A DNA stretch of 64,000 nt from Zootoca vivipara (taxonomy: Eukaryota): positions 30,194,001 to 30,258,000 of the forward strand of contig NC_083290.1 of the NCBI RefSeq assembly GCF_963506605.1, written 5' to 3'. Shown piece after piece: positions 2,411 through 61,910 of this stretch (positions within the stretch are counted from its first letter, which is position 1; every line of letters starts with the position of its first letter). The notes under the pieces were generated by a model. That model had not been told where the DNA came from. It saw only the letters and a list, made by a program, of their open reading frames with translations, and searched no databases. The translations under genes were made by a program, and so were the position numbers.

Positions 2411-3579
2411 CAGAAATGGCCTTAAGAGGCCAAAGTTTGCTAGTCCACCAAAGGTAATCTCAGCAGGTAATATTACAACTGGATCAGGCCAATGGGGGCC
2501 CATTTGGTCCAAGCATCTGTTCTCCCTGTGGCCAACCAGGTGCCCCAATGGGAAATACACAAGCGGGACATGGGAGAAATAGCACTCTCACCTCTTGTCA
2601 TCGCGGCAGTTGTTATCATGCAGAATGATACTGCGTCTCTCAGGGAAGGACTACGCTGGACCTAGCAAACCTATTAAGCCACATTTCCCTGTCCTTTGGA
2701 AGACAGTGCCAAACTTCTGGGAGTGGGGCTGGTCTTGCCCCTTGGGACTCCCGGCCTCTGCTAACTGCGAACATAAGGGACTGACTCAGCTAGAAGTCTG
2801 CTCTGACTTTGCAGAACTGGGCTGCACAGGTTGTCCCGGTAAAGGAGAGTGCCTTGAAATATTAATGAAGTGCTCCTTAAATTTGAGGAGGAGGAAGTGC
2901 AGTGGGGTCTTCTTCAGAGGGGATCAGCTGGAACCTGCCCAGGATGGTAGTGATGGGCAGCCTCTGTGAGCACAAAACAATCTAGAAGTCAGAGAGCTGT
3001 ACTGTCACTGTTGCCAAATTAATGGAGGATAAGGCTATCAGTGACTACTAGATATGCCTATTATATACTAGGCCTGTGCATCAGATTTGGCTGAGCCCAA
3101 TAGGGTAAATTTGAAGGGCCTCAGACAAGTCAGGAACACACAGCCAACACAGTTGGGCCGTTCTCCAGCTCCCTCAGCTCTGCTTGCCTAGCCCAGCCCA
3201 TAAGGAGCATGAGTGATAGACCCAAAATACTCCTCTTTCTAGTAGGTATATGAACCACCTGGGGTTTATAGCTGCTGAAACCATCTGGACTCAGAAGCCA
3301 CTGGGGTGTGATGCCCATTAGGACTGGCAGGGTGGAAGACTGGAAGGATAACAGTTTGCAGAACCAGAACTGAAGACAGGCTGAGCCAACTAATTCTGTG
3401 TTTGTCTCCATTCCCCCTGCAAAGACAAAACTGGATGGATGTCAAGAAAGGCAGGCAGGTGCAGACTGAGGTTGGTGGGCCGGTGCCCTCTCCTCCCTAT
3501 GGACCACGCACTGCGCAGGATGAGCCCAGCCCACCATTACTTTCTATCAGGAAGGCGAGAGTGACGGGAGGCCGCTTGC

Positions 3580-3600
3580 ATCAGGACTATGGATAGCGCC
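3580..3600 (+). promoter_or_regulatory. RE1/NRSE-like (REST) site upstream of SCN2B
   Basis: TCAGGACTATGGATAGCGCC versus consensus TCAGCACCAYGGACAGCGCC: 17/20 match with canonical half-site spacing. Confidence 0.55.
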
Positions 3601-4779
3601 CCAGTAGAAAGATGTGGATCTGGGATAGGCCGGAGGGGCGCTGCGCTGGGGCTTGGAGCGGCTCAACAGTCCCTTTCCTCGCTCCCCTTCCCCACAGCAG
3701 CCAAGGCTCTTCCTTCACCCCTAAGCAGCCAAGCAGCCCCAGCAGATGCGAGACAAGTCCAAAGCGTACCTACAACACTGCCAGAGCCCTCTCTGCGCGG
3801 GCTCTGTCTGAGCGGACCCGGGAGACGCCACCCAGAGCCTGTGCAGAAGCGTAGCCGGCTGTATTCTTTGGTTTCGCGTTGCCGCCCTCCGACGTTTATT
3901 GGAGCGTCCAGAAAGCGGGGAAGTTAAGGGAGCTCTTTCTCCGCACCCGACACTTCAGCTAGTGCCCAAGGAAGGGAGCAGGATAGCCAAGGCATTCACT
4001 TGTGGGTGGGGAGGCCTTCGGAGCCTGCAGTGTGTTTGTATGGGATGGGGGGGGCGTTTGATTCGCCGCTGGCTCCCTGTCCCGACTGGTCCCCAGCAGC
4101 TCCCACTGGCAACGCAGACTGAGCAGCTCAGGGCCAACTGGGAGGAGGAGGAAGCAGCCGTGGCACACAGCGCTTGGTGGAGGGGAGAAGAGAGGGTGGC
4201 GTGGCTGGGGTCTGTCTTGTTTGCTTGCCGTGGAAGAGGCGGGAGCGCATCCATCCATTCCTTGCCACCTATCCGCCTGGAGCATGCTGCCGCGCCACTT
4301 TCTGTCCTCTTGGACGATTGCGCGCGGTAGGGGGTGGGGAAGGGCTGCTGCCTGCTGGATTACCACATTGGGATGCCTAAATTGATACTCTTGACCCTTC
4401 TCGCCCTCCCTGCCCAATCGCTGGGGCAGTTGCTGCGAAAGAGGAAGGGGTGCGCGCGCAAGGGTCCAATAGCCAGTCGGGGGAGCTACTCTACTATCTC
4501 TCTTGCGCGGGGTAGTGTTGCTTTAACTGGGAATATGAAATGCACTTGGCTCCTCCGGGACCAAATTGAGGGGGCAGGCAATAAATCATTTGAAGAGCAG
4601 GGAATTCTCCCCCCACCCCCGCGCGAAGGTCCCCTACCAGCCTTCTCCTGCTCAGCAGGTTTTGGGGAGGGAGCCCTTGAAATGGGCATTTGCTCCAGGA
4701 GGCACCCCGTGCATAGATTGGGCTGGAGGACAAGAAGACGTCCCTCTGGAGCGGGTGGCTGAGAAGTTGACTTCGGCCG

Positions 4780-5372
4780 TGTGGGATGCAAAGGGTTAAG
4801 TGCAGTCAAGTCACAACAATCCCTAGATAGTCCACTTGGAGGACTGAGGAGGAGGATATGACTAAGCGTAGTTTCCTCTTCCTTCACATGCAAATGAGTT
4901 GAGGAAGTGGCAGATAAATCCTGAAGGAAACAGCCATTTTCCCTCTCTTGGACCAGACCTCTTGGACTACACACATCTTAGTGAGTCTCTCCCTCAAGGC
5001 CTCCAGCCTAGAGAGAGAGATGAGATGGAGTCTCACTTCTTATAAGTGAACTTCACAATGTATATATTACCTTTTAACTAAGCAAGTCTACCTCTTGAGT
5101 GTGCTGTACCTCGAGATGCTTGTAAGTAAACATCTTTTATACTTTTAAGAGCATTGTGTTGTGTCTTTTCTTTTAAGAGGGAAAAAGGGGAAATACCAGG
5201 AAAATACACTTTATTTTAGTGGCTTAAATCAAGCCTGCGCAAACGTTCTTCTGCTGTGTATTTTGCAAAAGGGGAATGTTTTACTCTGCTAAAGTTTTGT
5301 GCTTGCTAGCGCAAGCGGGGATAGGATATATTAAACAATATCTCCTCATCCACATTCCTGAACATTCCCACA
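4780..5372 (+). repeat. 5' LTR of the copia element
   Basis: TGTGGGATG...CATTCCCACA; no difference from 9727-10319 found by eye. Confidence 0.97.
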
Positions 5373-5374
5373 TA

Positions 5375-5391
5375 GGGTTATTGCGGCCCAG
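5375..5391 (+). promoter_or_regulatory. Primer-binding site, internal tRNA-iMet type, interrupted
   Basis: GGGTTAT-TGC-GGCCCAG 2 nt after the LTR; the complement of the tRNA-iMet anticodon-arm region is GGGTTAT-G-GGCCCAG. Confidence 0.7.
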
Positions 5392-5645
5392 AGTTGCGTA
5401 TTTTGTGTATTTTTGAAGGATTGATTTGGATTGTGATTTTGAACTCTGTAGGATTTTTCCAGTTAGGATTTCCTGGTTGAGCACATGGTCTCTTTGTTCT
5501 GCAGTGTGCTTGGGGGATTAACTACCCCTCCCCTCCCTCAGAGTTTACAGCACTGAGAAAGCTCAGAGGTAGTGAAGATATTTTTGAGATTTTGAATTTG
5601 ATTTTTGAAAGATTTTTGAATTTTGGAAATTTTTGAAGTTTTAAG

Positions 5646-8600
5646 ATGGCAAGCTCCAGTTTTGATAGTGAGGCAAGACCAAGTTTTATGCTGCTGGATG
5701 ACAATAATTTTGTGCAGTGGAAGCAGCGCGTTTTAGTTTATCTTGCTGCTAGGCGTGTTCTGCAGGCCATTAAGGAAGAAAAGCCTACAGGAACCGATGC
5801 AGAAGCTTTAGCTAAGATAGAAGCTTGGAGTATTAAAAATGATGAAGCCAAGCACATAATTTTGAGCAGTTTGAGGAATGAGCATCTATCAATGATAAAT
5901 TTTGAAGATGATGCATCTAAGATCCTAGAGGACATTGAACGCATTTATGCACAATCTACAGAGAGTTCCTATAGATACTTGTTGGATAAGTTACTCAAGT
6001 TGAAGATGAATTCTAGAGAAGAGTTTACAGAGCATTTTAAGAATTTTTCTGAGATTGTTCAAAGAATTGCCCTTACTCCCAGAGCCTTTGATGATGTGAC
6101 TAAAGTAACGTTTATGCTTGCATCATTGGGACCTACGTTTGCTCCATTTAAAAGTATAATGGATCACACAAAGGATTTAACTTTTAATGAGCTTATCAAC
6201 CATTTAAGAGAGGAATGCAGAGATAGCCTTGATTCTCAAGAAAGGAATCCAAGGAGGAAGGATAGCAGCTATGCATCCAAGCATTTTGGAAAGTCCAGAC
6301 AGACATCTAGAGAAATAATTTGTTTTAAATGCAATGGGAAAAACCACATAGCAAGGAACTGCAAGAGTCAAAATGGGGATAAAGTTGAATCCCACCCCTC
6401 AAAACCACAAGGTGTTAAGAAGGGGAGTCATGAGCAAACCATGTTGATGCAGGAGAGGAGTTTAGCTGTCCAGGATTGTGAAAATAAGCGCAATAAGTGG
6501 ATTCTTGACAGTGGAGCGAGTTCTCATTTCTGTTATGAAAAGGAGTATTTTAATGAGATTAATGGGGATGAAACCTCTGAAATTGAGATTGCTGATGGCA
6601 ACATTGTAAAGGCAATTGGTTCAGGAACTGTGAATTTGAAATTCAACGTAGATCATGAAACAATTAATACTAAGATAACTGAAGTTAAGTTTGCACCAAA
6701 GCTTAATTGCAACTTACTCAGCGTGTCCAGTTTGGACAGGAAAGGTTTTAAAATTACATTTGAAAAAGGACAATGTATTGTGACTAAGCATGATGAAGTT
6801 TATGTTCAAGGCACACTAAAGGATGGTGTATATGAGCTTAATGTTTCAGAGAACCAGCAGAACCAGTCTGCAAAGGTGGCGCAACCAAGTCAAAAGGACG
6901 AAGGAAGTCTGGAACTCTGGCACAAGAGACTTGGACACAGAGACACCAACGTTATTCTGGAACTACAGAAAGGTGATCTTGTGAGAGGTCTGCAGGTAAA
7001 GCAAAGCAACACAAATACACCAACATCAAAATGTATAACTTGTGTTAGTGAGAAAGCAACTAAACCTTCTTTCCCACGTTGTGCAGAGAAGAGAAGCACT
7101 AAAGTATTGGACATTGTCCATACAGATCTATGTGGACCAATGAATGTGTCTTCTCTAGGAGGTAATAAATATATTTTGATATTTTTGGACGATTTCTCGA
7201 GATTCTGCGTAGCCTACTTTATCAAGGAGAAGAGTGAGACAGTGGAATTGTTCAGGGACTATCTTAACATGGTCAAGAACAAGTTCCAGCGAGCCCCTTC
7301 CATTTTAATGTCCGATAATGGTGGGGAATTTTGTTCACATGAGATGCAGGCCGTCATGGCTAGAGAAGGCATATCACACGTGACCACAGTTGCCTACACA
7401 CCCCAACAAAACTCAATTGCAGAGAGGAAATTTAGATCCATTTTGGAAATGACAAGGTGCATGCTAAAGGAAGCTAACTTGTCACACAGGCTGTGGGGTG
7501 AAGCGGCTCGTTGCTCAGTCTATCTTCAGAACAGACTGCCCACAAAAGGCGCAGAGCGCACACCATTTGAACTTTGGCATGGAAAAGCCCCAAATTTGTC
7601 ACATATACGTGTATTTGGAAGTTTGTGCTACTATCATGTGCCCAAGGAGCACAGACACAAACTTGATTCCAGAGCGAAGGCAGGGATCCTAGTTGGGTAC
7701 GCTTCTGGAGGAAAAGGATATAGAGTCTTGGATCCGCAAACTGGCAAGACAAGTTCGCAGCATGTAATTTACTTCGATGAGCAAGGCAAAGTTGATACAA
7801 AGGACACTGCCATTGATTGTTCCAAGGAGCCACAGGATGAGGAATTTGTGATTTTTCCTTTTGAACCAATACAAAGTACTAATCCAACTTCTAGTGTCGT
7901 AGCACCCCCTATAGGTGACACCCGAGAAGACGTGGAGGTCCAGGCCCCTGGCAGCACCAGAGACGAAGATGATGACGAGCAGCTGTATGGGGATATGCCA
8001 CTGCTGGAGGAGGATGAGGAAGCTGATGCGGTCGAAAGACCAGAGGTCAGACGCTCATCCAGAACCAACAGAGGTGTTCCACCATTACGGCTGTCCTACC
8101 TTACAAGGTCGGCGTCTCCACAGGAACCTTCCAAATGGGAAGAGATAGAGAGGATGCCACCAGATGAAGCCAGTCTCTGGAGGAAAGCTGCTCAGGAGGA
8201 GATAGATGCACTTCATCGGAACAGGACCTGGACACTCACAGAACTACCTCCTGGTAAGGAAGCAATTGGAAGTAAATGGGTGTTCAAGGTTAAAAAGGGT
8301 TCAGAAGGGGAGGTGCAACGCTACAAAGCTAGGCTTGTGGCACAAGGTTTTTCCCAGAAGTATGGAGAGGATTACGATCAAGTGTTTGCACCGACAGTTC
8401 GATACAGCAGTGTCAGACTACTTTTAAGTATTGCAGCATCTAAGCAAATGTCAGTTTACCATATTGACATTGCGACAGCCTTTCTTCACGGCGAAATTTC
8501 TGAGCAGATTTATATGAAGCAGCCCAAAGGTTTCATTAAACCAAATGAGGCACATCTAGTGTGCAAGCTGCAGAAAGGACTTTATGGTTTGAAGCAAGCA

Positions 8601-9671
8601 GCGAGGGCTTGGAACCAGAAACTCCATGAGATGCTGGTGCAGCTTGGGTACAAGCAAGGGACTGCTGATAAGTGCTTGTACACCAAACAAAGGAATGGAC
8701 AGTTTTCGTACATTTTAGCCTTTGTTGACGACCTTTTAATTTCTACGTCAAATGAGAAAGACTATAAAGACATAGTCAAACACCTCAACAGGGAAGTAGA
8801 GGTCAAGGAACTTGGAAAAGTGAAATACTACTTGGGAATTCAAGTTGAGAGAGAAGAGGATGGATCGTTCTTACTCAGCCAAAGGCAAAAGATAACTGAA
8901 CTGATTGAAAGCATGCAGATGCAGGACGCACACCCAGTTGCGACACCGATGGCCACAGACTTCTTGAAGAATCAACAAGGTTCGAAGTTGCTGCCAAACA
9001 ACACGCAATACAGGTCAGCGGTCGGCAAACTTTTGTATTTGGTTACCACATGCAGACCTGACCTGGCAAGTGCAGTGGGGATCCTAAGTAGGAAAGTAAG
9101 TTGTCCCACTGAGCATGATTGGGCTGGAGTTAAGAGGGTTGTTCGTTATCTAAAGGGAACCATGGACTGTAAATTAAAACTGCCAGCTGTCAGAGACCCT
9201 AAACTGCTTGGGTACACTGATGCGGATTGGGCTGGGGACAATAAGGATTATAAATCCACAAGTGGCTATGTTTTTATGTATGGGGACGGAGCTATTGCAT
9301 GGGGCAGCTATAAACAGAAATGTGTAGCTTTATCGTCCACAGAATCTGAGTACATTGCGGCTTCGGAAGCTTGCAGAGAGATCCCCTGGCTGGATCAGCT
9401 CCTGAAGGACTTTGGCGTGCCAAGAACGGGACCTGTCAGCTTGATGGAGGACAATCAGAGCAGTATGAAGCTGACACAAAGTGAAAAGTTCCTTGCACGC
9501 ACCAAACACATTGGGGTCAGGTACCACTACATACGCCAGGTGATCGAGGATAGACTTGTTGAAATGTGTTACTGCAACACTGACCAGATGACTGCAGATG
9601 TCCTAACAAAGCCCCTGCCAAGAGAGAAGTTCCAGGATCTTCGTGGCAAGCTGGGACTCTTGGGTGGTTGA
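5646..9671 (+). CDS. Copia Gag-Pol polyprotein, 1341 aa, uninterrupted
   Basis: Zn knuckle CFKCNGKNHIARNC; protease WILDSGASSH; integrase HHCC (LWHKRLGH...CITC), DDE (HTDLCGP, SDNGGEF, IAER) and GKGY; RT (KWVFKVK, YKARLVAQG, LYGLKQ, FVDD); RNase H (YTDADWAG, STESEY, EDNQS, ADVLTKPL). Confidence 0.98.
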   Translation: MASSSFDSEARPSFMLLDDNNFVQWKQRVLVYLAARRVLQAIKEEKPTGTDAEALAKIEAWSIKNDEAKHIILSSLRNEHLSMINFEDDASKILEDIERIYAQSTESSYRYLLDKLLKLKMNSREEFTEHFKNFSEIVQRIALTPRAFDDVTKVTFMLASLGPTFAPFKSIMDHTKDLTFNELINHLREECRDSLDSQERNPRRKDSSYASKHFGKSRQTSREIICFKCNGKNHIARNCKSQNGDKVESHPSKPQGVKKGSHEQTMLMQERSLAVQDCENKRNKWILDSGASSHFCYEKEYFNEINGDETSEIEIADGNIVKAIGSGTVNLKFNVDHETINTKITEVKFAPKLNCNLLSVSSLDRKGFKITFEKGQCIVTKHDEVYVQGTLKDGVYELNVSENQQNQSAKVAQPSQKDEGSLELWHKRLGHRDTNVILELQKGDLVRGLQVKQSNTNTPTSKCITCVSEKATKPSFPRCAEKRSTKVLDIVHTDLCGPMNVSSLGGNKYILIFLDDFSRFCVAYFIKEKSETVELFRDYLNMVKNKFQRAPSILMSDNGGEFCSHEMQAVMAREGISHVTTVAYTPQQNSIAERKFRSILEMTRCMLKEANLSHRLWGEAARCSVYLQNRLPTKGAERTPFELWHGKAPNLSHIRVFGSLCYYHVPKEHRHKLDSRAKAGILVGYASGGKGYRVLDPQTGKTSSQHVIYFDEQGKVDTKDTAIDCSKEPQDEEFVIFPFEPIQSTNPTSSVVAPPIGDTREDVEVQAPGSTRDEDDDEQLYGDMPLLEEDEEADAVERPEVRRSSRTNRGVPPLRLSYLTRSASPQEPSKWEEIERMPPDEASLWRKAAQEEIDALHRNRTWTLTELPPGKEAIGSKWVFKVKKGSEGEVQRYKARLVAQGFSQKYGEDYDQVFAPTVRYSSVRLLLSIAASKQMSVYHIDIATAFLHGEISEQIYMKQPKGFIKPNEAHLVCKLQKGLYGLKQAARAWNQKLHEMLVQLGYKQGTADKCLYTKQRNGQFSYILAFVDDLLISTSNEKDYKDIVKHLNREVEVKELGKVKYYLGIQVEREEDGSFLLSQRQKITELIESMQMQDAHPVATPMATDFLKNQQGSKLLPNNTQYRSAVGKLLYLVTTCRPDLASAVGILSRKVSCPTEHDWAGVKRVVRYLKGTMDCKLKLPAVRDPKLLGYTDADWAGDNKDYKSTSGYVFMYGDGAIAWGSYKQKCVALSSTESEYIAASEACREIPWLDQLLKDFGVPRTGPVSLMEDNQSSMKLTQSEKFLARTKHIGVRYHYIRQVIEDRLVEMCYCNTDQMTADVLTKPLPREKFQDLRGKLGLLGG

Positions 9672-9715
9672 TTAAAGTTATTTATGTATGTTTTTGTGTA
9701 TGTTGTGAATTGCCT

Positions 9716-9724
9716 GAGAAGGGG
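9716..9724 (+). promoter_or_regulatory. Polypurine tract of the copia element
   Basis: GAGAAGGGG 2 nt before the 3' LTR. Confidence 0.8.
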
Positions 9725-9726
9725 TT

Positions 9727-10319
9727 TGTGGGATGCAAAGGGTTAAGTGCAGTCAAGTCACAACAATCCCTAGATAGTCCACTTGGAGGACTGAGGAGGA
9801 GGATATGACTAAGCGTAGTTTCCTCTTCCTTCACATGCAAATGAGTTGAGGAAGTGGCAGATAAATCCTGAAGGAAACAGCCATTTTCCCTCTCTTGGAC
9901 CAGACCTCTTGGACTACACACATCTTAGTGAGTCTCTCCCTCAAGGCCTCCAGCCTAGAGAGAGAGATGAGATGGAGTCTCACTTCTTATAAGTGAACTT
10001 CACAATGTATATATTACCTTTTAACTAAGCAAGTCTACCTCTTGAGTGTGCTGTACCTCGAGATGCTTGTAAGTAAACATCTTTTATACTTTTAAGAGCA
10101 TTGTGTTGTGTCTTTTCTTTTAAGAGGGAAAAAGGGGAAATACCAGGAAAATACACTTTATTTTAGTGGCTTAAATCAAGCCTGCGCAAACGTTCTTCTG
10201 CTGTGTATTTTGCAAAAGGGGAATGTTTTACTCTGCTAAAGTTTTGTGCTTGCTAGCGCAAGCGGGGATAGGATATATTAAACAATATCTCCTCATCCAC
10301 ATTCCTGAACATTCCCACA
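9727..10319 (+). repeat. 3' LTR of the copia element
   Basis: 593-bp direct repeat of 4780-5372, followed by TSD GGCCG. Confidence 0.97.
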
Positions 10320-10559
10320 GGCCGCCAGGCTCTGCTCTTTGGGAAATGGCAGCAGCCCAAGAACGTAGCAACAGTGGCAACTGCTTTCTCCGGGTCCAGG
10401 TCCAGCCAGCTCTGATGGGAAGATGCTCTCCAGGTCTTTAGACAGGTGCCTTTCCTCAGCCCTACCTGGAGGTGCTGCTGTGGGTTGAATCTGGGACCTT
10501 CTGCGTCCAAATGCGGTGCTTTGCCCCTCAGCTATGACCCTTCCCTGACCAGAACACGG

Positions 10560-12300
10560 GGAGGGCAGGCAGGGGGTGTCGAGATTAATTCTCCGCTCTC
10601 CCCCAGCCCGCCGCCCCCGCGGAAGCTGGGAGCATCTCTCATTCCCGGCACATAAGGGTTTCCTGCCCTCCCACTTCCTTTGCTGAGATTCGCCAACCAC
10701 AGAAATGATGTGTCCCCCCGTTTTTTAACCGCGGCTGCAGGGGAAGCACCAAACCCTTCAGCCGGCCATCTTTGAGCCCTCGCCATAAAGCTTCCAGAAC
10801 ATGATGTATGCCTCCGAGTCCAAACCCCGCATTTGACCCTCCCCTCCCCTCCACCCAAGCCAAGCCAAGCCGAGCCAAGCAGCGCACCGCCCGGCCCCCT
10901 CCCCCTCTCCCCACTAGGCCCGGAGGATGAGCCGAGAAACCCCCCGGCCCCCGAAGACGCCCGCCCTGGCGCTCCTCATCCTCTGCCTCGCGCTGGGTAA
11001 GTGGTTTCTGGGGTCCCGGCATGGGGAGCTGAGGCAGGAGGGGAGCAGCGGGGAGGGGTCTGCAGCGTCTGCTGCTGCAATCTGGCGAGGGCCGCTGCGG
11101 ACCTGCCCGGCTCCACAGCCCCACTGACAGCTGCGCCCCAGGGAGGAGGAGCGGGAGGCGCCGCTTTGCCTAGGCTCCAGGGCGAGCGGGGAGCGTCTTT
11201 GGGGGGCGCCTTCGGGGTGGGCCCTTTCCTGGCCAGCGCCCCTCAGTGCATTTGCTGGTAGAACCGGCCAGAGCCGGTGCCCCGCCAGAGCTACACAATT
11301 TTTGGCCGGATCAGTCGCCAGAAACGGAGAATATCAATGCCGAGGAAAACGCTCCGGGCCTGGATCTTTGGAAAGTGGCTGCGGGGGGCGGCGGCTGAGG
11401 GCAGTGTGCGTGTGGTCACTCTCTCACACACACAGCTGTGCCGGGGTTGCCAGATGCTGCTCCGCCTCCTATCCTAGGGACCAGAGTTGCTCCCTCCCGC
11501 GCCTGCTTAAGTCCTCCCAAAATGAGGCACAGATTCTTTCCTCGCTTGGACTGTGGGGTGTGGCGAGGGGGGGGACTCCGGGCGACTGCGCAGGAAGAGA
11601 GCCCCCTCTTGATTCAGCAGGGACCAACCACTGCCTCCCACCCCCTAGGATACTGCGCCGGCGCCCACTCCCCAGCATTCATAGATAGGGGCTTCTCTCA
11701 GAAACCTTGTGGGAGCCTTCGAGGGTTTCCTGGCCATCGCTGGCGATTCCCTGCAGTAGCTCCTCCTGCTCACACCTTCCAAAGGGACTCTCTAAAGGCC
11801 GACTTAGCCGCCAGTGGTTCCCTGCTGCCAGGCGCGACCTTTCTACAGCAGTCCGTGATCACCAGTTCCATGTGGGAGAGGAGAGACGAGGAGGCTGCGC
11901 CAAACCTGGACATGGGCCTTCGCTACTCCCAGCCCCGTCTTACTCGGCCCCCTCCGTTACAAGGCTTGTGTCCCGTTGGCCGAGCACACAGCCCTCTCTG
12001 CCTCTCCAAACAGGAGCGCAAAGGGCCTGCAAAAAGCGCGCAGGCGACCGTTTTGGAAAGGATGAGGGGGCGAAAGACCAGGCTTTCTGCGGCTGGGCTT
12101 GTGGGGAAAAGGGGGCGCAGCCAAGGCGCTGCTCTAGGTAGCCAGCTCGGCGAGGAACCCCCTGATCTCTTCTGCAAATCCCAGCTGAACTAAGGGCGCA
12201 CCGGCTTCCCCTCAGGGCTCCCGGGGTACGGCGAGGGGGAGGTGCGTGTTGAATGTGTTCCAGTTTGCAGTAGCATCTGACGAGCCAGGAACTGCCTCAG
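10560..12300. promoter_or_regulatory. SCN2B: CpG-rich promoter / first-exon region of SCN2B
   Basis: High GC and CpG density around exon 1, with GC-box-like runs near 10605-10620; limits approximate. Confidence 0.7.
10927..10996 (+). CDS. SCN2B: Sodium channel beta-2 subunit, coding exon 1 (signal peptide)
   Basis: ATG in good context (AGGATGA), MSRETPRPPKTPALALLILCLAL, G|gtaagt donor; 70 nt, phase fits exon 2. Confidence 0.88.
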
Positions 12301-14188
12301 CAATTGCTGCATTCAAGGCACTGCAGAGGCTGCAGCTTCTGCAGCACTCAGGGCTCCTCGGAACAGCTAGGAGACCGGTTTGCCAGGCGTCAGCAAAAGG
12401 GACTGACAGAAACAAGCTGACCTTGGACTGCCTGCTGCCTCAGGCGTCTCCTTAAAGCCCCAGGGCTGCCACCCAGCTTCAGCAGCGACCGGGAAGAATG
12501 ACACCCATACCCGTGTGGGGCAGCAGGAACCCCTCTGCTCCTGAGCATGCGCCCAGTGTGGAGGGTCCGGCACGCACGCTACCATGATTATCCCCTCGGG
12601 GGTGACTCAGGTGGGGTCTTAGGGCCACGCGGAAGGAGCTTCGGTTCGGAGCAGTGGTGCAGCCTGGGAATGTCAGACCCCAGACATGGTGGCAGGTATT
12701 GCTAGTTCAGTCCTGAAACAGGTAATCCATACATCTCCCCGTCCGTCCCCCCCAGCCGCCCTTTCGTCCTCTGCAGTTCCTTCTACGTTCCTGATCTGTT
12801 AAAGCCAAAACAAAAAGAATATAGTGTGCTAGGCTAGCCCTGATCAGAAACTAAACAATTCTAATTGTTTAAACTCGCCTTGAGCCCCCGCGTGGCTGAT
12901 CCATAAAGAAGGTGAGGGTGAGGGGAGACCCTTTTGGGACTCTGCTCTGCCTTCAAAGCCAGGGGGACCTGGGAGGAATTGCTGAGATGAGCGCGAAGAA
13001 ACAGAGAGGGAGAAAGGAAGCGGCGGAGTTGTTGGCAGGCTTCCTGCCATCCGTAGCCGGACGGAACAGCGACAGACGCAGGAGCTCAGCGCCCGTCCTT
13101 CCGTAGCCAAAGCCTCGCCAGCAACGCGCGCAAGAGAGGGAGCGCTCTGCCATCAGGCTGGCGGGCAAGTTTTCAGATGCCCCCTCCCCCCAAAAAACTC
13201 GTTTAGAAAAAAAGAATAATCCCAAACAACTGGGCCAGAATACTGGCGGGAGGGGGACGAAAAACAAGGGGGCAGAGGAGGTCTGAAAAAGGCATGTGCG
13301 CTGCATGCAGAAGGCCCCAGGAGCAACCCCGGTGGGCATCTCCAGGTAGGGCCAGGAGGAGACACCCCTGCCTCAAATCCTCTAGAGCTGCTGTTGCCAG
13401 TCAGTGTTGACAATACTGGCCTATATGGACCAATGGTCTGACTTGGTATAAATGCAGCTTCTTATGTTCCTAATGGAGTGCTCAGGAAAGGGACAGGACT
13501 GCCTGGCGCCTTGAGTAGGAGCTGTCCACACTGCAACCAGAAGTCACCCGTCCCACTTCTCTGGCCATCATAGAATTGTCGAGTTGGAAGGGACCCTAAG
13601 GGTAATCTAGTCCAACCCCCTGCAATGCAGGAATCTTTTGCCCAAAGTGGGGCTCTAACCCACATCCCTGAGGTGCAGAGTTTTATGTTCTACTGACTGG
13701 GCTATCCCATTAGGCTTGTTCTATAAAATTCTCCAGCTACGTTTTTCTGGTACAGTTGGGATCCTGTTCTAACTTGATCACTTAATATTGAACTATCTTG
13801 AGCACTTTCCCCTTTGGAAAGAAAGAAACAAACCAACTCCCAGAGGGTCCTTTTTCAGCAGCCCGCCTTCCTCCCCTCCCCCAAAAGGGGGGGGGGTTGC
13901 CGACCCAACGTTGCTGCCCTTCATGTGTAATGGGTGGGTGGGGTGCTAGAGCAAGCGAGGCTGGATCTGCACTGATCTGTATAAATGCTATTAAATAAAG
14001 GCTATTAGAAAAAAAGGCTATTAGAAAAAAAACAGTACTGTATAACTCTCAATGCAATTTCCCATGGCCAACTGATTGCTGCTCTGCAGCACCCTCTGGT
14101 GTCACATTTTTATAACACATTTTAAAGGTTATAACTGACCAGGGTAGATTCGCCTCTCCTGCCTTACCCTGTTCCCTTCTTCCGGCAG

Positions 14189-14355
14189 TGCCAAGCAGCC
14201 TGGGCATGGAGGTCATGGCGCCTTTGACCCTCAGTGCCCTGAATGGCTCCTCCATCCGCCTCACCTGCACCTTCAACTCCTGCTACCGGGTGGAGAAGAA
14301 GCAGTTCTCCCTCAACTGGACCTACCAGGAATGCGACAATTGCACCGAAGAGATG
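14189..14355 (+). CDS. SCN2B: SCN2B coding exon 2 (Ig-V domain, N-half)
   Basis: cag| acceptor, MEVMAP...CTFNSCYRVEKKQFSLNWTYQECDNCTEEM, |gtgagt donor; 167 nt; the alpha-subunit-linking Cys in FNSCY is retained. Confidence 0.97.
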
Positions 14356-14821: not shown

Positions 14822-16733
14822 TTTTATTTTAATTTTTTTTATTTTTTATTTTTTATTTTTTTAATGGTTTAAAAATTTTTATTTCAGAATTTTTAAAATT
14901 ACATATTAAAGGAACAAGAAAAAAAAATAAATACAGAGAAAAAAAAAACCAACAAAAAATCACAAAATGAAAAAGGAAAAAAAAAAAAAAGGGGGGGATT
15001 CAATGCTCCCTCCTTCACGAGTTTACATAAATCATAACTTGTTATAATCATGCATACAGAGCCAATACTTCCACACATATAAAATAATCAAATCATAATC
15101 AAATCAAATCATAATAACCAAGGATATATATATGTATGTATATATATATACTAAATCAAAATTCCAAACATTCACCACCTAATTCATACAGCAATTATTA
15201 AACATAATTTATAAGGCATAAACACAAAACGAAAAAAGTAATAACAAAAAATACCTGCAAAAATAATAATACAAAAGATAAAAATGCAAAAAAAAGAAAA
15301 AAAAAATAAAAATAATGAAAAAAAGAAAAGAAAGAAGAAAAATGTAGAAGTACTTCCGATTGTCTGTCCACTGTTATCTTACAGTATACTCTTCCTCTTA
15401 CTTGTTACATTCCCACTTTCCTTTCCGGCTAATTCCGGATGGTTTTCCCTTACTTTAACCTAACATATATTATCTCTTTGTACGGATCTTAATTTAAACA
15501 TATCACCAATTCGGAATTTAATCCCTCTTTTATTAAATAATCATCTAATAATTTCCACTCGCTTTGGATTTTTTGTTTCGGGGTATTTCTTATATACGCT
15601 GTCATCTTTGCTAAATTCATATACTCTATTACTTTGTTTTGCCACTCACAAACCGTCGGTGTCTCCTCTCTTTTCCATTTCTGTGCTATAAGGGTCCTTG
15701 CTGCTACCACCGCATATAATAAAATATTCCTTCTATCCTTGGGTATGTCTTTGGGAACCATACTCAGTAAGAACAGCTCTGGGGATTTCCCAAATGTACA
15801 CTTTAACATCCTCTTTAACTTCTCATAGATTATGTTCCAGAACCCTTGTATTTTTTTACACTGCCACCAACAATGCATGTACGTTCCAATTTGTTCGTGG
15901 CATTTCCAACACTTATTTGAGCCTTCTTTATATATCTTCCTTAATTTCTCTGGTGTCAGGTGCCACCTATATACCATCTTCATTGTGTTTTCCTTAATTG
16001 CTGTGCAAGCTGTAAATCTCATACTTTCTAGCCACAAATTCTCCCATTTTATACACTCAATAGTCCTACCGAAATCTTGTGCCCATTTTACCATAACATC
16101 TTTAACTAATTCGTCCTTTAGATTCCACTCCAACAAAAATTTATATATTGCTGCCAATTGTTTCCCCTCATTTTCAATTAACAATTCTTGTAATTTTGAT
16201 TTATTTTTCTGAAAACCGACTTCCCTATGCTTCTTAAATAAGCTTTGTATTTGAGTATATTGTAACCAGCTTGCACAGCAATTTTTCACCTCTTCATATG
16301 GTGTCAATGTGTACTGCTTGTCTACCTCCTTTATCAGGTCCTGGTACGTTAGCCACTTTTCCTTATTTCTTCCTCCCCCCCCCAGGGCCGTTATTTCAAA
16401 GGGTGATGCCCACCACGGTGTCTTTGGTTCTAATAATTTCCTAAATTCCAACCATATCCTGAATATCGAATTTTTGATTACGTGGTCGGTAAATTCCTTA
16501 TATATCTTTTCATTTTCTTGCAGAAGGTATGCGTGCCACCCAAGAGAATTTCTAAATCCCTCCAGATCTAAAATTTCCCTATTGTCTAACACAATCCATT
16601 CTTTTAAGCAGCACAAATTTGCCGCTGCATAATATAATTTTAAATATAATTATAATTTTAAATCCGGTACACCCCAACCTCCCCTCTCCTTGCTATCCGT
16701 TAATAATTTAAACTGTATTCTAGGTTTTTTTTT
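14822..16733 (-). mobile_element. 5'-truncated L1-clade LINE, antisense in SCN2B intron 2
   Basis: Open ORF2 C-terminal 375 codons (15489-16616) with CWKC...HCWWQC zinc finger, T-rich 3' UTR, AATAAA and A-rich tail on the minus strand; homologous to the ORF2 at 47718. Confidence 0.93.
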
Positions 16734-17057: not shown

Positions 17058-17268
17058 TTTCTACAGTTTAGGTTGAAGATTGTTCCTATGGAGCAGACCC
17101 GCTTTGGGGATCGCGTGGAGTTCACCGGGAACCCCATCAAGAATGATGTCTCCTTCACCCTCCACAACGTGCAGCTGGATGACAAAGGGACCTACCACTG
17201 CTATGTCATGAACCCCCCTGACCGGCAGAAGGGACACGGCAAGATCAGCCTGATAGTGATCACCGAAG
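17058..17268 (+). CDS. SCN2B: SCN2B coding exon 3 (Ig-V domain, C-half)
   Basis: FLQFRLKIV...DRVEFTGNP...DKGTYHCYVMNPPDR; 211 nt; ag/gt ends in phase. Confidence 0.97.
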
Positions 17269-17533: not shown

Positions 17534-17733
17534 AACCTCCCGAGCGGGACTCGACGGTGGCCGTGATCGTGGGAGCCACGGTGGGAGGGTTCCTGGCCGT
17601 GGTCATCCTGGTGCTGGTGGCTGTCAAGTGCGTGCGGCGCAAGAAGCAGCAGAGGTTGAACACGGATGACCAGAAGACGGAGGAGGAGGGCAAGACGGAT
17701 GGCGAGGGCAACCCCGACGAAGGCACCAAGTAG
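17534..17733 (+). CDS. SCN2B: SCN2B coding exon 4 (TM and cytoplasmic tail, stop)
   Basis: PPERDSTVAVIVGATVGGFLAVVILVLVAVKCVRRKKQQRLNTDDQKTEEEGKTDGEGNPDEGTK*; total CDS 648 nt = 215 aa. Confidence 0.98.
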
Positions 17734-19176: not shown

Positions 19177-19820
19177 TGTGGGAATGTTTAGAAAGGTAGG
19201 AGAGGATATATTGTTTTGATATTATTTCTCCTGGCTCACGCTATTGAGCAAACAGCAGAGCGCATTCCCTTGCAGCTTATAGTGAAGCAGTTGATCTCGC
19301 TGGAGTTTTTAAATTAAGCTATCCAGTCTGGCTTGTCCCTGGTAAATTTCCCCTTTATTTCCCCTCTTAAAATAAGAATAACGCAACATAGTCTTCTTGA
19401 AAAATAACAGGTTTTTCTCATGTTCAGTTCACAGCAGTAATCTGAAGGCAGGCTTTATCTTGTGGCCACAGTTACTGTACATTTGTGGAGAAAATAAGTC
19501 TGAGTTGGGTGGTCTCAGACTTTCTACTTGTGGCCTCCATCCTCTGTAAGGATGGGCCATGTGCTGCTGGCTAAGAGCCAGGAGCAGTAGGAATACAGAA
19601 GTGAAGATCCAAAAAAAGGGAAAAGGGAAGATGGTTGCATGGCTAGCCCTTTTACATGGTCAGCTAGGGTCACACCCATGTACCTGGTCACCCACAGGGG
19701 GAGGAGGCTCCAAAGCAGGTATGACAGGAAGCCCTCCCTGTCTGGAGCCACTTCCCCCCGTGTGTCCCTTCTAGGCAACAGGAAAATGTTGTACTTGCTG
19801 CTCTATCAATACATCCCACA
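19177..19820 (-). mobile_element. Copia-type solo LTR (family B), antisense, probably within the SCN2B 3' UTR
   Basis: Minus strand reads TGTGGGATG...CATTCCCACA; TSD CCACT/CTACT; homologous to 61041-61910. Confidence 0.85.
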
Positions 19821-47717: not shown

Positions 47718-50700
47718 ATGAGATTCAACTTGATTTCGTGGAACGTAAATGGTTTAAACAAGAAATGCAAAAGAAATAAAGTAGAATATCTATTGAAAAA
47801 AGGGGCCTGGGATATAATCTGTATACAAGAAACCCATATTTCAAAAAAACACGAAAGAATTTTAAATAATGGAAGACTAGGAAATGAATTTATTTCAGCT
47901 GATAAAAAGAAAAAAAGAGGGGTAGTGACATATGTGAATCCAAAATCTAAAGCAGAAAAAATATTTCAAGACAATGAAGGAAGAATAGTAGGAGTAAGAA
48001 TCAGATTAACTATTGGAGAAATCATAATAGTAAATATCTACGCCCCAAATGGTTGTAAGGTGGATTTTTTTAAACAAGTAGAGAAATTGATAGGAGAAAA
48101 TGTGAGAGAGGAGGAGATTATATTGGCAGGCGACCTGAATGGTATTATAAAACCAGATTTGGACAGAACGAATGTGAGTAGAAAAAAAGGTGGAAAGCTG
48201 CCGGCTAGCTTCCAACAATTGACCATAAATTATGATATGAAAGACATCTGGAGGGAATGGAACCCAACTGGGAGGAAGTTTACACATTATTCGGAGTCAA
48301 AAAAATCAGCAGCTAGAATAGACGCAATTTGGTCAACTAAAAATCTAATAAGAGGAATAATTGATTGTGATATATTACCAAAATCAATCTCCGACCATAA
48401 CCCAGTTATGATTAAATTAGAGGATCAAAGAGAGAAATCAAAAAGATGGAGATTAGATGAAAACATTTTAAGAGATGAGGCCTTTGTTGGAAAAATGAAA
48501 AGCACATTGAAAGAATTTTTTGAAATAAATGTTAGAGAAGAGACAAAATTAACATCAATTTGGGATGCCAGTAAAGCATTCCTAAGAGGCCTATATATAC
48601 AACAAAAAGGTAAGAAACAAAAAGAAAGGAGAGAAAGAATAGAGGAGATCAAAAAGAAAATTGAAGAAAAAGAAAAAGAGCTTGGGAGAAACCCGAAAGA
48701 TGGGAAATTGGTAAGTCAGATAAAGATACTTCAAAAAGAATTAGAAAATGTGGTAGATCAAGAATTGGAGAAAAAAATTAGTTGGTATAGACAAAAACAA
48801 TTTGAACAGGGAAATAAAATGGGGAAATTCTTATCATGGCAATTAAGGAAAAAACAAAATGAGAAAATCATAACAAAAGTAAGAGAAGAAGGAAAATGTT
48901 GGGCAAAGATTGATGAGATACAAAGATGTTTAATTGGGTATTATAAAAAATTATACAAAGGGGAAGCCGGAAAGGAGATGGAAATTAAAAATTATTTGGG
49001 GAAGTACAGGGGAGAAGTATTGAAAGAGGAGGAAATAAAATTGTTAAATGACCCGATTTCGAAACAAGAAATTACCTGGGCGATAAAAAAATTAAAATTA
49101 GGGAAATCGCCGGGAACAGACGGCCTGGGGAGTCAACACTATAAAATTCTAAAAGAGGAGTTAATGGATATTTATCATAAATTAGTGAATGAGGCATTAG
49201 AGAAGGGAAACATACCTCAGTCATGGCAAGAGGCCTATATAATCCTACTGCCAAAAGAAAAAGGGGAGGAGATATTGGTCTCGAATTTTAGACCAATATC
49301 ACTCCTAAATGTGGACTATAAAATATATGCGAATATATTGGCAGAGAGGTTAAAAAGAGTATTAAATAGAATAATTAATCAAAATCAACAAGGTTTCTTA
49401 CCAAAAAGGAAAATTGCAAATAACATCAGAATGCTTTTAAATATATTTGAATTCCTAGATTGGAACCCAGGAAAAAAAGCTGCTTTTGTATTTTTAGATG
49501 CTGAGAAGGCTTTTGATAGCCTCTCATGGGATTTTATGAAAAACATAATGACCAAAATTGGAATTAAGGGGAATTTTGCGAAAGGCATTAATGCTATATA
49601 TAAAAATCAAACGGCCAAATTAATTGTAAATGGAAGAATTTTGGAGGAGTTTGGAATCGGAAAAGGAACGAGGCAGGGCTGTCCGCTTTCGCCCTTACTG
49701 TTCATAATGTCTATTGATTGTTTATTAAATGAAATCAAAGATGAGGAAGAAATTAAAGGGATAAAGGTGAGAAAACACATAGTTAAAGTGAGGGCGTTCG
49801 CGGACGACATTATAGTAATGTTAGAAAATCCAGAAGAAACAATATTGAAATTAAAGAAAAAATTAGAAGATTTTGGGATTGTTTCAGGTTTTAAAGTAAA
49901 TGTGAAAAAAACAAAAATTATGACAAAAAATATAAGAAAAGAAGAGATAGGAAATTTGGAAAAACTGACAGGCTGGCAAGTAGTTAAAAAAGTGAAATAT
50001 TTAGGCATAGAAATGACCACGAATAATATAAACCTATTTGAGAATAATTATTCAAAAGTGTGGAAAGAGATAAAATTGGATTTGGAAAGGTGGAAAAATT
50101 TATTTCTAACAATCTCAGGCAGAATAGCAGCTATAAAAATGGTGGTGTTACCTAAGATCATGTTTCTATTCCAAACTCTTCCGATAGTGGGGAAAAAGTC
50201 GATATTCGAAGAATGGCGAAAAATTTTAAGCAAATTTATCTGGGCAGGGGGGAAACCCAGGATTCAGTACAAATTATTAACAGAAACAAAAGAAAGAGGT
50301 GGCTGGGGAGTTCCAGATTTAAGGTTGTACTATGTGGCAGCGGGTTTCTGCTGGATCAAAGAATGGCTAACCTTAGAGAATAAAGAATTGTTGGAGGTGG
50401 AAGGTTTTCGTAATATCAAAGGTTGGCATAATTACTTATTAATGGAACAAAAAGGAAACAATAGGGAATTCACAGACCACACAGTTAAAAAATCATTATT
50501 TCAGATTTGGCAAGAGTTTAAAAATTTAGTGGAGCCACAGAGTCCCTGGTGGGCATCCCCCGTGGAAATGTCAGTGATGAGACCTAGTTGGGGAGATGGG
50601 AAATGGCCGACATACAAGGACCTGGTAGTGATGGAGGGAAATAACCTAAATTTAAAACCTTATGAAGAAATAAAGAAGTATTGTTCAAGTTGGTTACAAT

Positions 50701-51469
50701 ATAACCAAATACAAAGTATATTTAATTTACATAAAGCAATCGGCTTCTCAGGTAAAGAGTCAAAACTACAAGAAATAATAATAAATAATGATAAAAAACC
50801 ATTAGGCAAAATGTATAAATTTTTATTAGATTGGGAACTAAAAGATGAATTGACTAAAAAAGTAATGATAACCTGGGCAATTGATATTGGAAGACCAATC
50901 CAAATTAGTCAGTGGGAAAAATTATGGAGAACAGATGTTAAATTTACTGCATGTATAACAATTAGAGAAAACATCCTAAAGATGTTTTATAGATGGTATA
51001 TAACCCCGGAAAAGATTGGGAAATTTTATAGATCGGGAGATGGTAAATGTTGGAAATGCCGGGAAAAGACAGGCTCCTTCTATCACTGCTGGTGGACATG
51101 CCCAAAGGTGGCAAAATTTTGGAATGAGGTTTATGAAAAATTAAAAAAAAAATGAAATTTACTTTTGAAAAGCAGCCCGAGCTATTCCTCTTAAGTATGG
51201 TCCCATTGGATTTCCCAAAGGATAGAATAAACATCTTATTATATGCTTGCGCGGCTGCAAGAATTCTAATAGCAGCAAAGTGGAAAGAAGAAAAGATCCC
51301 GACAATTCAAGATTGGCAAGAGAAATTAGTAGAGTATCTAAAATTGGCAAAACTAACGGCGATAATAAGAGAGATTCCTAGATGTAAAATAGTAGAAGAA
51401 TGGAAATATGTGCAAGAGTTTCTGGAAAAAGAGAATTTAGAAAATAGATTAGTAACGTGCATAAATTGA
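47718..51469 (+). CDS. L1 ORF2 (APE endonuclease, RT, CCHC) with one frameshift at the A10 run 51143-51152
   Basis: WNVNG, QETH, NIYAPN, GDLN, SDHNPV; RPISLLNVDYK, LDAEKAFD, GTRQGCPLSPLLF, FADD, KYLGI; CWKC..HCWWTC; continues in ORF 51152-51469. Confidence 0.95.
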
Positions 51470-60332: not shown

Positions 60333-60929
60333 TGTGGGATGGAACACTGGGGCAGACAAGTCACAACAGTTCCTAGAGTGTCCACTAACAGGAACTCACC
60401 TGGAGGGACACCTGACTACAGGTCAGTTCCTGTTCCCTCAGACATGCAAATGAGTTGGATTAGATAAGCCCCTAGCCTGCAATCACTCTCTCTCTTAGCT
60501 ACTTCCTCCCTCGATGAGGACACATCTCCAGAGAATCTCCAGTTAGCATGGTTCTCACTCTAGGCCTGCAGCCAAGAGTGAGACCAAATGGAGTCTTACT
60601 TTACTAAGTAGTCTCTAGATATATATGTACTTGTAACTTTTCTAAGCAAGCCTGCCTTTCTGAGATTATGCTGTAACTCAGGATGAAACTGTAAGTAAAC
60701 TCTATCTTATTTTATAAACACTGTGTTGTGTATTTCTTTTAAGAGGGACAAAGGGGACTTTTGCCAGGAAGTGTAATATTGTTATAGAGATTCTAGCGAA
60801 TCTAACGCACATGCTTTGCTGCGCACAAAAGGGGAATGTCACTCTGCTAATATTGGAAGCTTGCTAACACAAGCTTGGATAGGATCTATCTAATAATATA
60901 TCCTAATCCACATCCCTAACATTCCCATA
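60333..60929 (+). mobile_element. Copia-type solo LTR, diverged relative of the full-length element's LTR
   Basis: TGTGGGATG...CATTCCCATA, 597 bp, TSD CCTTG; shares ACATGCAAATGAGTTG, TGTAAGTAAAC and AAAAGGGGAATGT blocks with 4780-5372. Confidence 0.92.
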
Positions 60930-61040: not shown

Positions 61041-61910
61041 TGTGGGATGGACCACTGAAGCAGTAAAATACATTTCCTGTTTCCTAGAGCGGACACATAG
61101 GGGAATGTTGCTGCAGACAGGGAGGACTTCCTATCATACCTGCTCTGGAGGCTCCTCCCCCTGTGTGTGACTAGGTAGATGGACATGACCCTAGCAGACC
61201 CTACAAAAGGGCTAGCGCAGGGTCCCCAAACTAAGGCCCGGGGGCTGGATCCGGCCCAATCGCCTTCTAAATCCAGCCCGCGGACGGTCCGGGAACCAGC
61301 ATGTTTTTGCATGACTAGAATGTGTCCTTTTATTTAAAATGCATCTCTGGGTTATTTGTGGGGCATAGGAATTTGTTCATGATTTCCCCCCAAAATATAG
61401 CCCCCCCCCAGGTCTGAGCGACAGTGGACCGGCCCCTGCTGAAAAAGTTTGCTGACCCCTGGGCTAGCCACTTAGCCATCTTCCTCTCTCTTTTGGTCTT
61501 TTTTTTGGCATTTTCTTCTCTTCTGGCTCTTAGCCAGCAGCACATGGCTCATCCTTAAAGAGGATGGAATCCACAAGGTAGAAAGTCTGAGGCCTAGCTC
61601 AGACTTCTTTTCTCTACAAATGTAACTGTAACCACAAGATAAAGCTTGTCTTCACAAAACTATTGTGAACTGAATGTAAGTAAACTTTACTCTTACTTTA
61701 AAATGAGATTGTTGTGTTATTATTTTAAAGAGGGAAATAAAAGGGGAAATTTACAGTACCAGGAACACTCCAGACTGGACAAGCCAGACTGGATTGCTCA
61801 ACTTAAATGATTCTAATGAATCCATGCTCTGCTGCTAGCTCACTAGCGTGAGTGAGGAGGGATAATATTCAATCAGTATATCCTCTCCTACTTTCCTCAA
61901 CATTCCCACA
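61041..61910 (+). mobile_element. Copia-type solo LTR (family B) with a nested hAT MITE
   Basis: TGTGGGATG...CATTCCCACA, TSD TCTTC; homologous to 19177-19820. Confidence 0.9.
61218..61461. mobile_element. hAT MITE, OposCharlie1-like ends
   Basis: CAGGGTCCCCAAACT...AGTTTGCTGACCCCTG with GGCCC-rich subtermini; TSD GGCTAGCG/GGCTAGCC. Confidence 0.85.

Follow-up and report, generated by a model that had tools for sequence, protein, structure and literature searches.

The 64,000-nucleotide (nt) stretch of the Zootoca vivipara genome analyzed here (assembly GCF_963506605.1, contig NC_083290.1, positions 30,194,001 to 30,258,000; hereafter the window) contains an intact Ty1/copia long terminal repeat (LTR) retrotransposon of 5,540 bp on the + strand (4780–10319), just upstream of the sodium-channel subunit gene SCN2B. 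The element is polymorphic and is one of at least 113 copies produced by a very recent burst. Its family probably starts reverse transcription from the 5' half of the initiator tRNA for methionine (tRNA-iMet), and it likely copies this primer, in the course of which a bulge in the primer-binding site is sometimes overwritten; we assign this reading a probability of about 0.75. The anatomy of the primer site is the novel part of these observations and went unmentioned in an earlier annotation made from the sequence of the locus (the original prediction). The single insertion is ordinary, young and active squamate copia elements having already been published (PMC11948899, PMC4657000, PMC11889832).

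The two 593-bp LTRs (4780–5372 and 9727–10319) show 0 differences, cannot be extended on either side and end in the inverted termini TGTGGGA...TCCCACA. The element thus combines the features of the Ty1/copia class, viz., direct repeats of the TG...CA type, a 5-bp target duplication, a primer site, a polypurine tract and an integrase (IN) preceding the reverse transcriptase (RT)-RNase H (RH) region. In the 1341-amino-acid (aa) gag-pol frame, Pfam recognizes gag, zinc knuckle, protease (PR), integrase, SH3 and RVT_2 regions in copia order, with rve (487–586) upstream of RVT_2 (859–1103); 55 nt separate its stop codon from the 3' LTR, and env is absent. A script located what we take to be its catalytic motifs, and the nearest protein matches are unnamed proteins at 83–84%, the next lying at 45–55%. 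The window copy and 3 of 95 siblings have in common one missense change, which lies towards the end of RNase H and does not touch the catalytic residues. The comparison of LTRs and flanks and the reading of the frame therefore agree with the original prediction, which had described LTRs without differences within a GGCCG duplication, a gag-pol uninterrupted by stops with the usual catalytic residues, and an SCN2B start codon (10927) 607 bp past the LTR end in the same orientation.

An LTR search returned 40 of 40 scored matches at 100% identity, and an exact-pattern search of the genome yielded 301 LTR starts and 103 bulged LTR-primer junctions, 100 of them individually listed. Our sibling set comprises 112 other loci, with at most one bulged junction outside it. 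All 112 have distinct flanks, 90 retain the full-length frame and 111 have two LTRs; of the latter, 101 have identical LTRs and 108 their own perfect 5-bp target duplication. The LTRs of the 95 full-size siblings contain 4 substitutions over 56,335 nt, these siblings differ from one another by 0.10% on average, 54 of the 96 full-size copies carry no private variant, and the window copy's combination of variants is unique among the 96. At an assumed rate of 1–3e-9 substitutions per site per year the mean age of the family is 12–36 thousand years, and the window copy taken alone is bounded only at less than 0.8–2.5 million years. The near-identical copies that the original prediction proposed to count genome-wide are thus plentiful, and its call of a recent insertion holds, given the identical LTRs and the near-identical copies. 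The activity it envisaged is supported for the family by the burst and by RNA reads on the element (the RNA runs covered being X21, X22 and X23 from the same species, about 6% of each), and for this copy it is a possibility.

The insertion is also polymorphic, as had been expected, because an empty site is present in four of four samples. A 4,363-nt contig from X5 joins 2651–4779 to 10320–12558 with a 5-nt overlap, i.e., the exact empty site with a single 5-bp target; contigs from X2 and X4 continue for 25 nt beyond 4779 in sequence unlike the LTR, and an X1 contig has about 2.5 kb of non-LTR sequence beyond 10320. Each sample (from two studies, X1 possibly being the source of the assembly) therefore has at least one empty allele, and its contigs are compatible with a filled allele besides it. 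That the LTR identity or the entire insertion is an assembly artefact is scarcely credible. The lack of a filled-allele contig among those listed for four DNA runs would fit this explanation, but such contigs are often dropped, making their absence uninformative alone; against it, the duplication equals the empty site exactly, the window copy has its unique variant combination, and the internal/flank word depth of about 120–160 in three independent DNA runs agrees with the copy number of the assembly. Collapse of copies in the assembly is ruled out by this depth together with the 112 distinct flanks and the 108 of 111 individual duplications, and the depth ratios further imply that copy numbers in other animals are similar.

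Hemivirus-type copia elements and Ty5 are primed by a half-tRNA, using a site that matches the initiator tRNA's anticodon stem-loop. Using initiator tRNA genes located in the same genome for pairing, we found that the site of the window element is likewise complementary to the anticodon stem-loop of tRNA-iMet and not to its 3' end, which places it with the half-tRNA-primed copia/Ty5 type. The primer core consists of two 7-bp runs flanking three bases that face one, a 2-nt excess (5382–5384) opposite the anticodon wobble base; the bulged site pairs at −23.5 kcal/mol and the exact form at −31.1 kcal/mol. The tRNA-matching tracts start at nt 40 in all variants. The 2-nt excess is found again in a sister family of about 75% identity (4 matches, 2 of them young, with LTRs 99–100% identical), in subfamilies at 96–98% and in a further variant. 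On this sequence complementarity the primer is likely the 5' half of the initiator tRNA, and the exact-site copies and LTR-tRNA-U5 loci described below point to ordinary tRNA-iMet rather than to a variant tRNA fitting the bulge, for which no direct search was made. Beyond the core, the predicted extension boxes reach −16.5 kcal/mol; pairing of this strength is attained by 0.15% of 2000 shuffled sequences and by 1.9% of the element's 20-mers. The pairing predicted in the U5 region of the LTR has p≤0.022 in 4 of 4 LTRs tested, and in 8 of 9 related LTRs its box for the tRNA 5' end (nt 1–7) is situated 86–89 nt ahead of the LTR end. The first base of the spacer between LTR and primer site (5373) is T at 81, A at 29, G at 1 and C at 1 of the 112 loci, the second being A in all 112.

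At 9 of the 112 loci, on at least six backgrounds, an exact 15-nt tRNA complement stands in place of the bulge. Eight of these loci have two LTRs, which in every case are identical and lie within a perfect duplication, so the two-base difference recurs in brand-new copies. On a variant tree of the 96 full-size copies, which leaves out 16 non-full-size or incomplete loci, the 7 exact-site copies need 7 changes (shuffled mean 6.96); five linked markers, present in 6–15 copies each, need 1–2 changes on the same tree. Of 31 shared sites, 14 are in conflict with the primer-site state, more than for any other site, and sisters with at least two private variants in common nevertheless have unlike primer sites (L095/L142; L092 versus L069/L121/L124). 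A half-converted site occurs four times and carries little weight because all occurrences are confined to a separate sub-lineage. Ty1 and Ty3 strictly inherit their primer site (PMC7472051 section 4.3), a mode at odds with exact sites on at least six backgrounds and with the three loci containing tRNA-derived tracts.

These three loci have a composite build. L182 and L183 each consist of an entire LTR, 2 nt, the tRNA complement from nt 40 to 10 and a repeat of the last 111–120 nt of U5, with target duplications around the whole unit (matching at 5/5 and 4/5 positions, respectively); L184 is put together alike, its U5 repeat being 56 nt long and its outer ends undelimited. No gag-pol follows any of them. 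They are most simply read as plus-strand strong-stop DNAs that had copied the primer, annealed anew on the U5 box and then been integrated. In mouse and human, position 9 of tRNA-iMet is 1-methylguanosine (m1G9; PMC11347157), and all tRNA-complement tracts stop before G9. A read-through of m1G9 to tRNA nt 1 was considered for L184 and dropped, its continuation being the U5 box, which has the same letters. The A/G run between the U5 boxes (5264–5280, LTR position about 487–499) is a hot spot of variation and lies close to the point at which U5 resumes in two of the mini-insertions. A second, distant copia family (10 matches), with gag and protease by Pfam, has a 31-nt site corresponding to tRNA-iMet 40–10 directly after its LTR, exact in 6 of 8 loci viewed and with one mismatch in the other 2; its members L185–L193 have 350-bp LTRs, are mostly about 99% identical over the compared stretch and also possess a U5 box for the tRNA 5' end.

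We propose that minus-strand synthesis would start at tRNA nt 40 and that plus-strand strong-stop DNA would copy the primer down to nt 10, where m1G9 would block it. At strand transfer the tRNA-derived and element-derived strands would then mismatch at the bulge, and about 8% of insertions would retain the tRNA version of the site, conversion being limited to the 15-nt core since the pairing past that point is interrupted. In rare cases the end derived from the tRNA may re-anneal on the U5 box to give an LTR-tRNA-U5 mini-insertion, and the variable first base after the LTR likely results from untemplated addition at the end of the minus-strand template.

Several observations weigh against this proposal. 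Primer use and the stop point are read from genomic footprints; the three composite loci belong to older sister families whose LTRs are 67–70% identical to that of the window element; and m1G9 in the lizard tRNA-iMet would be presumed by analogy with mouse and human. For retroviruses a figure of 50% is stated (PMC7472051 section 4.3), and the value of about 8% here falls far below it. Inheritance accounts in part for the first base after the LTR, which needs 21 changes on the variant tree versus 26 when shuffled (p=0.002), and the 7 changes counted for exact sites are a maximum, since sisters within a polytomy are scored one by one. Exact sites are further enriched on one background (4/12 versus 5/99, p=0.008), so some were likely inherited from one exact parent; with this taken into account, six origins or more are left. 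Recombination does occur, as witnessed by an integrase-less subfamily with a young LTR on a 96–98% body and by one mosaic copy. Such recombinants and the clustering on one background, along with a family uniformity that leaves few markers near the primer site, would accommodate exact sites arising only through recombination or gene conversion with exact-site copies, the primer tRNA never being inherited, as in Ty1. We regard this as quite unlikely, given that LTR and internal markers are in phase in 43 of 44 copies and that a rough model (donors 8%, crossover 2–10%) predicts 0.2–0.9 converts among 111 copies, where at least 5 are observed outside the enriched background (P≤0.002). It also leaves unexplained the LTR-tRNA-U5 loci, with a tRNA tract longer than the primer sites seen here in their own families.

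Primer copying of the kind proposed bears on why the bulge persists. If about 8% of sites are converted in each cycle, and in one direction only, a neutral bulge would be expected to wear away over many cycles; its persistence in two young families that are 75% alike therefore suggests that copies with the bulge make the better parents. We infer from these comparisons that selection may keep the bulge, the likeliest advantage being that it would allow escape from silencing by tRNA halves or proteins aimed at the perfect site. The combined reading, which we advance tentatively as a little short of an even bet, is that in half-tRNA-primed squamate copia elements the plus strand copies to m1G9 and repairs the site one-way, with the bulge being selected to evade tRNA-half silencing. 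As part of the same tentative reading, the m1G9 stop would be the 5'-half counterpart of retroviral copying to 1-methyladenosine 58. It is quite conceivable, if on balance improbable, that tRNA copying is real but the bulge neutral, each burst having been founded by chance by a few bulged parents. The parent lineages are few; the divergence may have accumulated mostly in genome-resident copies over few replication cycles (0.92^10 = 0.43); and neutrality would predict no more than about one exact parent among the roughly 15 sub-lineages of the young family. Drift is a serious rival, the number of cycles between the sister families being possibly small. Against neutrality stands the recurrence of a 2-nt excess at one and the same spot, seen in the two young families 75% alike, in the 96–98% subfamilies and in a further variant, as does the same pattern in mouse ETn/MusD, which has been read as a trade-off of priming against silencing (PMC7472051 section 4.3). 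The positions of the element's parts and of SCN2B are collected in Table 1.

Table 1. Features of the copia element and of SCN2B in the window (X21 and X23 are RNA runs)
Feature	Position	Strand	Remarks
Left target-site duplication GGCCG	4775–4779	+	single copy in empty allele
5' LTR, 593 bp, TG...CA	4780–5372	+	TATA-like 5061; splice donor after 5121; AGTAAA 5125
U5 boxes versus tRNA-iMet nt 10–16 (5253–5259) and nt 1–8 (5283–5290)	5253–5290	+	again in 3' LTR 10200–10237
Spacer, 2 bases between LTR and primer site	5373–5374	+	5373 hypervariable, 5374 invariant
Primer-binding site core	5375–5391	+	complementary to tRNA-iMet nt 40 to 26
Predicted extension boxes, tRNA nt 16–10 and 8–2, G-U pairs included	5393–5406	+	
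gag-pol open reading frame, single frame, 1341 aa, gag-PR-IN-RT-RH, no env	5646–9671	+	
GT-AG intron, 232 nt, inside RT/RNase H	9096–9327	+	5 reads, 4 starts, X21 family RNA
Polypurine tract, 2 nt ahead of 3' LTR	9716–9724	+	
3' LTR, same sequence as 5' LTR	9727–10319	+	splice donor after 10068
Right target-site duplication GGCCG	10320–10324	+	
SCN2B exon 1	10723–10996	+	RNA coverage from bin 10723–10888; ATG 10927; donor after 10996
SCN2B exons 2–4	14189–14355, 17058–17268, 17534–17733	+	exon 1–2 splice: 6 reads, X23

SCN2B has a four-exon frame of 215 aa with GT/AG introns, and its exon 3 best matches the human sodium-channel beta-2 subunit (E=1e-25). Reads on it come from X23 only, a run from an animal that may or may not carry the insertion and which differs from the window at several SCN2B exon sites; their coverage is 0 in 10391–10722 and begins in the following bin. 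X21 contributes 238 reads, nearly all on the element and with first mates mostly on the minus strand, which would make them sense RNA provided that the library was stranded in the usual way. In many of them variants of older subfamilies are present, and the letter marking the sub-lineage of the window copy occurs in 0 of 14. RNA reads exit the LTR at position 342 (5121/10068 in the window), before GTAAGT, in X21 (3 reads) and in X23 (52 reads, possibly one molecule), and the LTR therefore likely has a working splice donor. This donor overlaps the AGTAAA signal, and the exiting reads continue differently in the two runs; such an overlap could decide whether a transcript is spliced or has its 3' end formed there.

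An effect of the insertion on SCN2B, such as use of the 3' LTR as an alternative promoter or silencing of the CpG-rich promoter, both envisaged by the original prediction, is possible but found no support here, and the position of the insertion beside the gene is most likely incidental. We consider it unlikely that SCN2B output is altered in carriers by read-through interference, spreading of methylation or splicing of the LTR donor to exon 2. The arrangement would permit such an effect, the element being on the same strand about 400–570 bp from the native RNA start and splitting a CpG-rich 1-kb block (GC 61%, observed/expected ratio (o/e) 0.58) from the promoter, with the LTR donor position used by reads in both X21 and X23; moreover, copia insertions cause corn-snake colour alleles, though intronic ones (PMC4657000, PMC11948899). 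However, the proximal promoter is undisturbed, the X21 reads with the informative position lack the letter of the window copy's sub-lineage, and none of the reads sampled from X22 or X23, about 6% of each run and from animals that may or may not carry the insertion, links the LTR to SCN2B. An unspliced LTR-started transcript at the locus is predicted to include 12 upstream ATGs, and a splice joining the LTR donor (10068) with exon 2 would skip the start codon and signal peptide and yield a 14-codon out-of-frame product. There is also no REST-type site near the insertion, the single match elsewhere comparing with 0.58 expected.

Targeting of promoters or CpG islands by the family is not supported: the median flank GC is 44% (290 nt each side), 2 of 109 siblings reach the 58% of the window site, and only 2 loci combine GC≥55% with CpG o/e≥0.6, the window site having an o/e of 0.39. 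The flanks of 108 copies display a weak symmetric target preference, with G/C at −3/+3, T at −2 and A at +2. The 100 listed junctions look clustered in places (7 on G000:C12 at 32–40 Mb, 8 on C17 at 18–31 Mb). The integrase-less subfamily comprises 11 copies of 4.3–4.6 kb (L064–L066, L068, L102, L127, L144, L145, L149, L162, L165) that lack about 910 nt (codons about 424–727) and retain a long open frame; 9 have identical LTRs, and with an LTR 99.5% like the young one on a body at 96–98%, it is likely a non-autonomous lineage that captured the young LTR. Elsewhere in the window, a sister-family solo LTR, 92% identical to L178/L179 and 71% to the LTR of the window element, and two LTR fragments occupy 60352–60927, 61675–61910 and 19177–19216, one of the fragments being inverted and just 3' of SCN2B. 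A presumed long interspersed nuclear element, so called on its motifs, lies at 47718–51469 and has a frame of 1145 aa; an inverted fragment related to it, at 15489–16700, falls in SCN2B intron 2.

The original prediction rightly held that copia elements occur in squamates and overstated the surprise of a young one. Copia is reported in 23 of 24 squamate genomes surveyed, with Mtanga as the only lepidosaur clade found (PMC11889832); the window family resembles Mtanga in being a lepidosaur copia, and the paper makes no mention of primer sites (0 matches for PBS, primer or tRNA). In the corn snake an active copia with about 85 near-identical copies has insertions in OCA2 and CLCN2 (PMC4657000, PMC11948899). 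It is like the window family in being young and mobile, with near-identical copies and polymorphic insertions at genes, and differs in its length (5,832 versus 5,540 bp) and in its intronic insertions with proven phenotypes. Strings of the window family's primer-site type were not found in the amel allele sequence, in which line breaks could hide one; the corn-snake element is therefore probably another family.

Completion of reverse transcription in half-tRNA-primed elements and restraint by 5' tRNA halves are little documented in the literature searched, and a search that did not extend to subscription papers, bioRxiv supplements and the primary Ty5/Ty1 priming papers found no report on copia primer inheritance or squamate copia primer sites. 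About a hundred near-isogenic insertions are available in the family, with bulged and exact sites both occurring naturally, along with fossils marking where copying stopped, and sequencing alone would suffice to address both questions. The family also continues to generate structural variation in a vertebrate, one polymorphic copy adjoining the promoter of a sodium-channel subunit. If the tentative combined reading is true, the family would serve as a vertebrate system, active in nature and supplied with its own revertants, in which germline defence by 5' tRNA halves could be tested.

Compared with known systems, the half-tRNA-primed copia and Ty5 elements (PMC5371799) use the same region of the initiator tRNA for their primer site. 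The window family differs in its conserved 2-nt bulge, in the predicted boxes in U5 and downstream of the core, and in its putative footprints of primer copying to nt 10. The closest precedent is provided by the mouse ETn, MusD and IAP elements, with their imperfect primer sites and scattered revertants; those are Retroviridae primed by a tRNA 3' end and targeted by 3' fragments, whereas the family described here is a copia lineage probably primed by a 5' half (PMC7472051 section 4.3).

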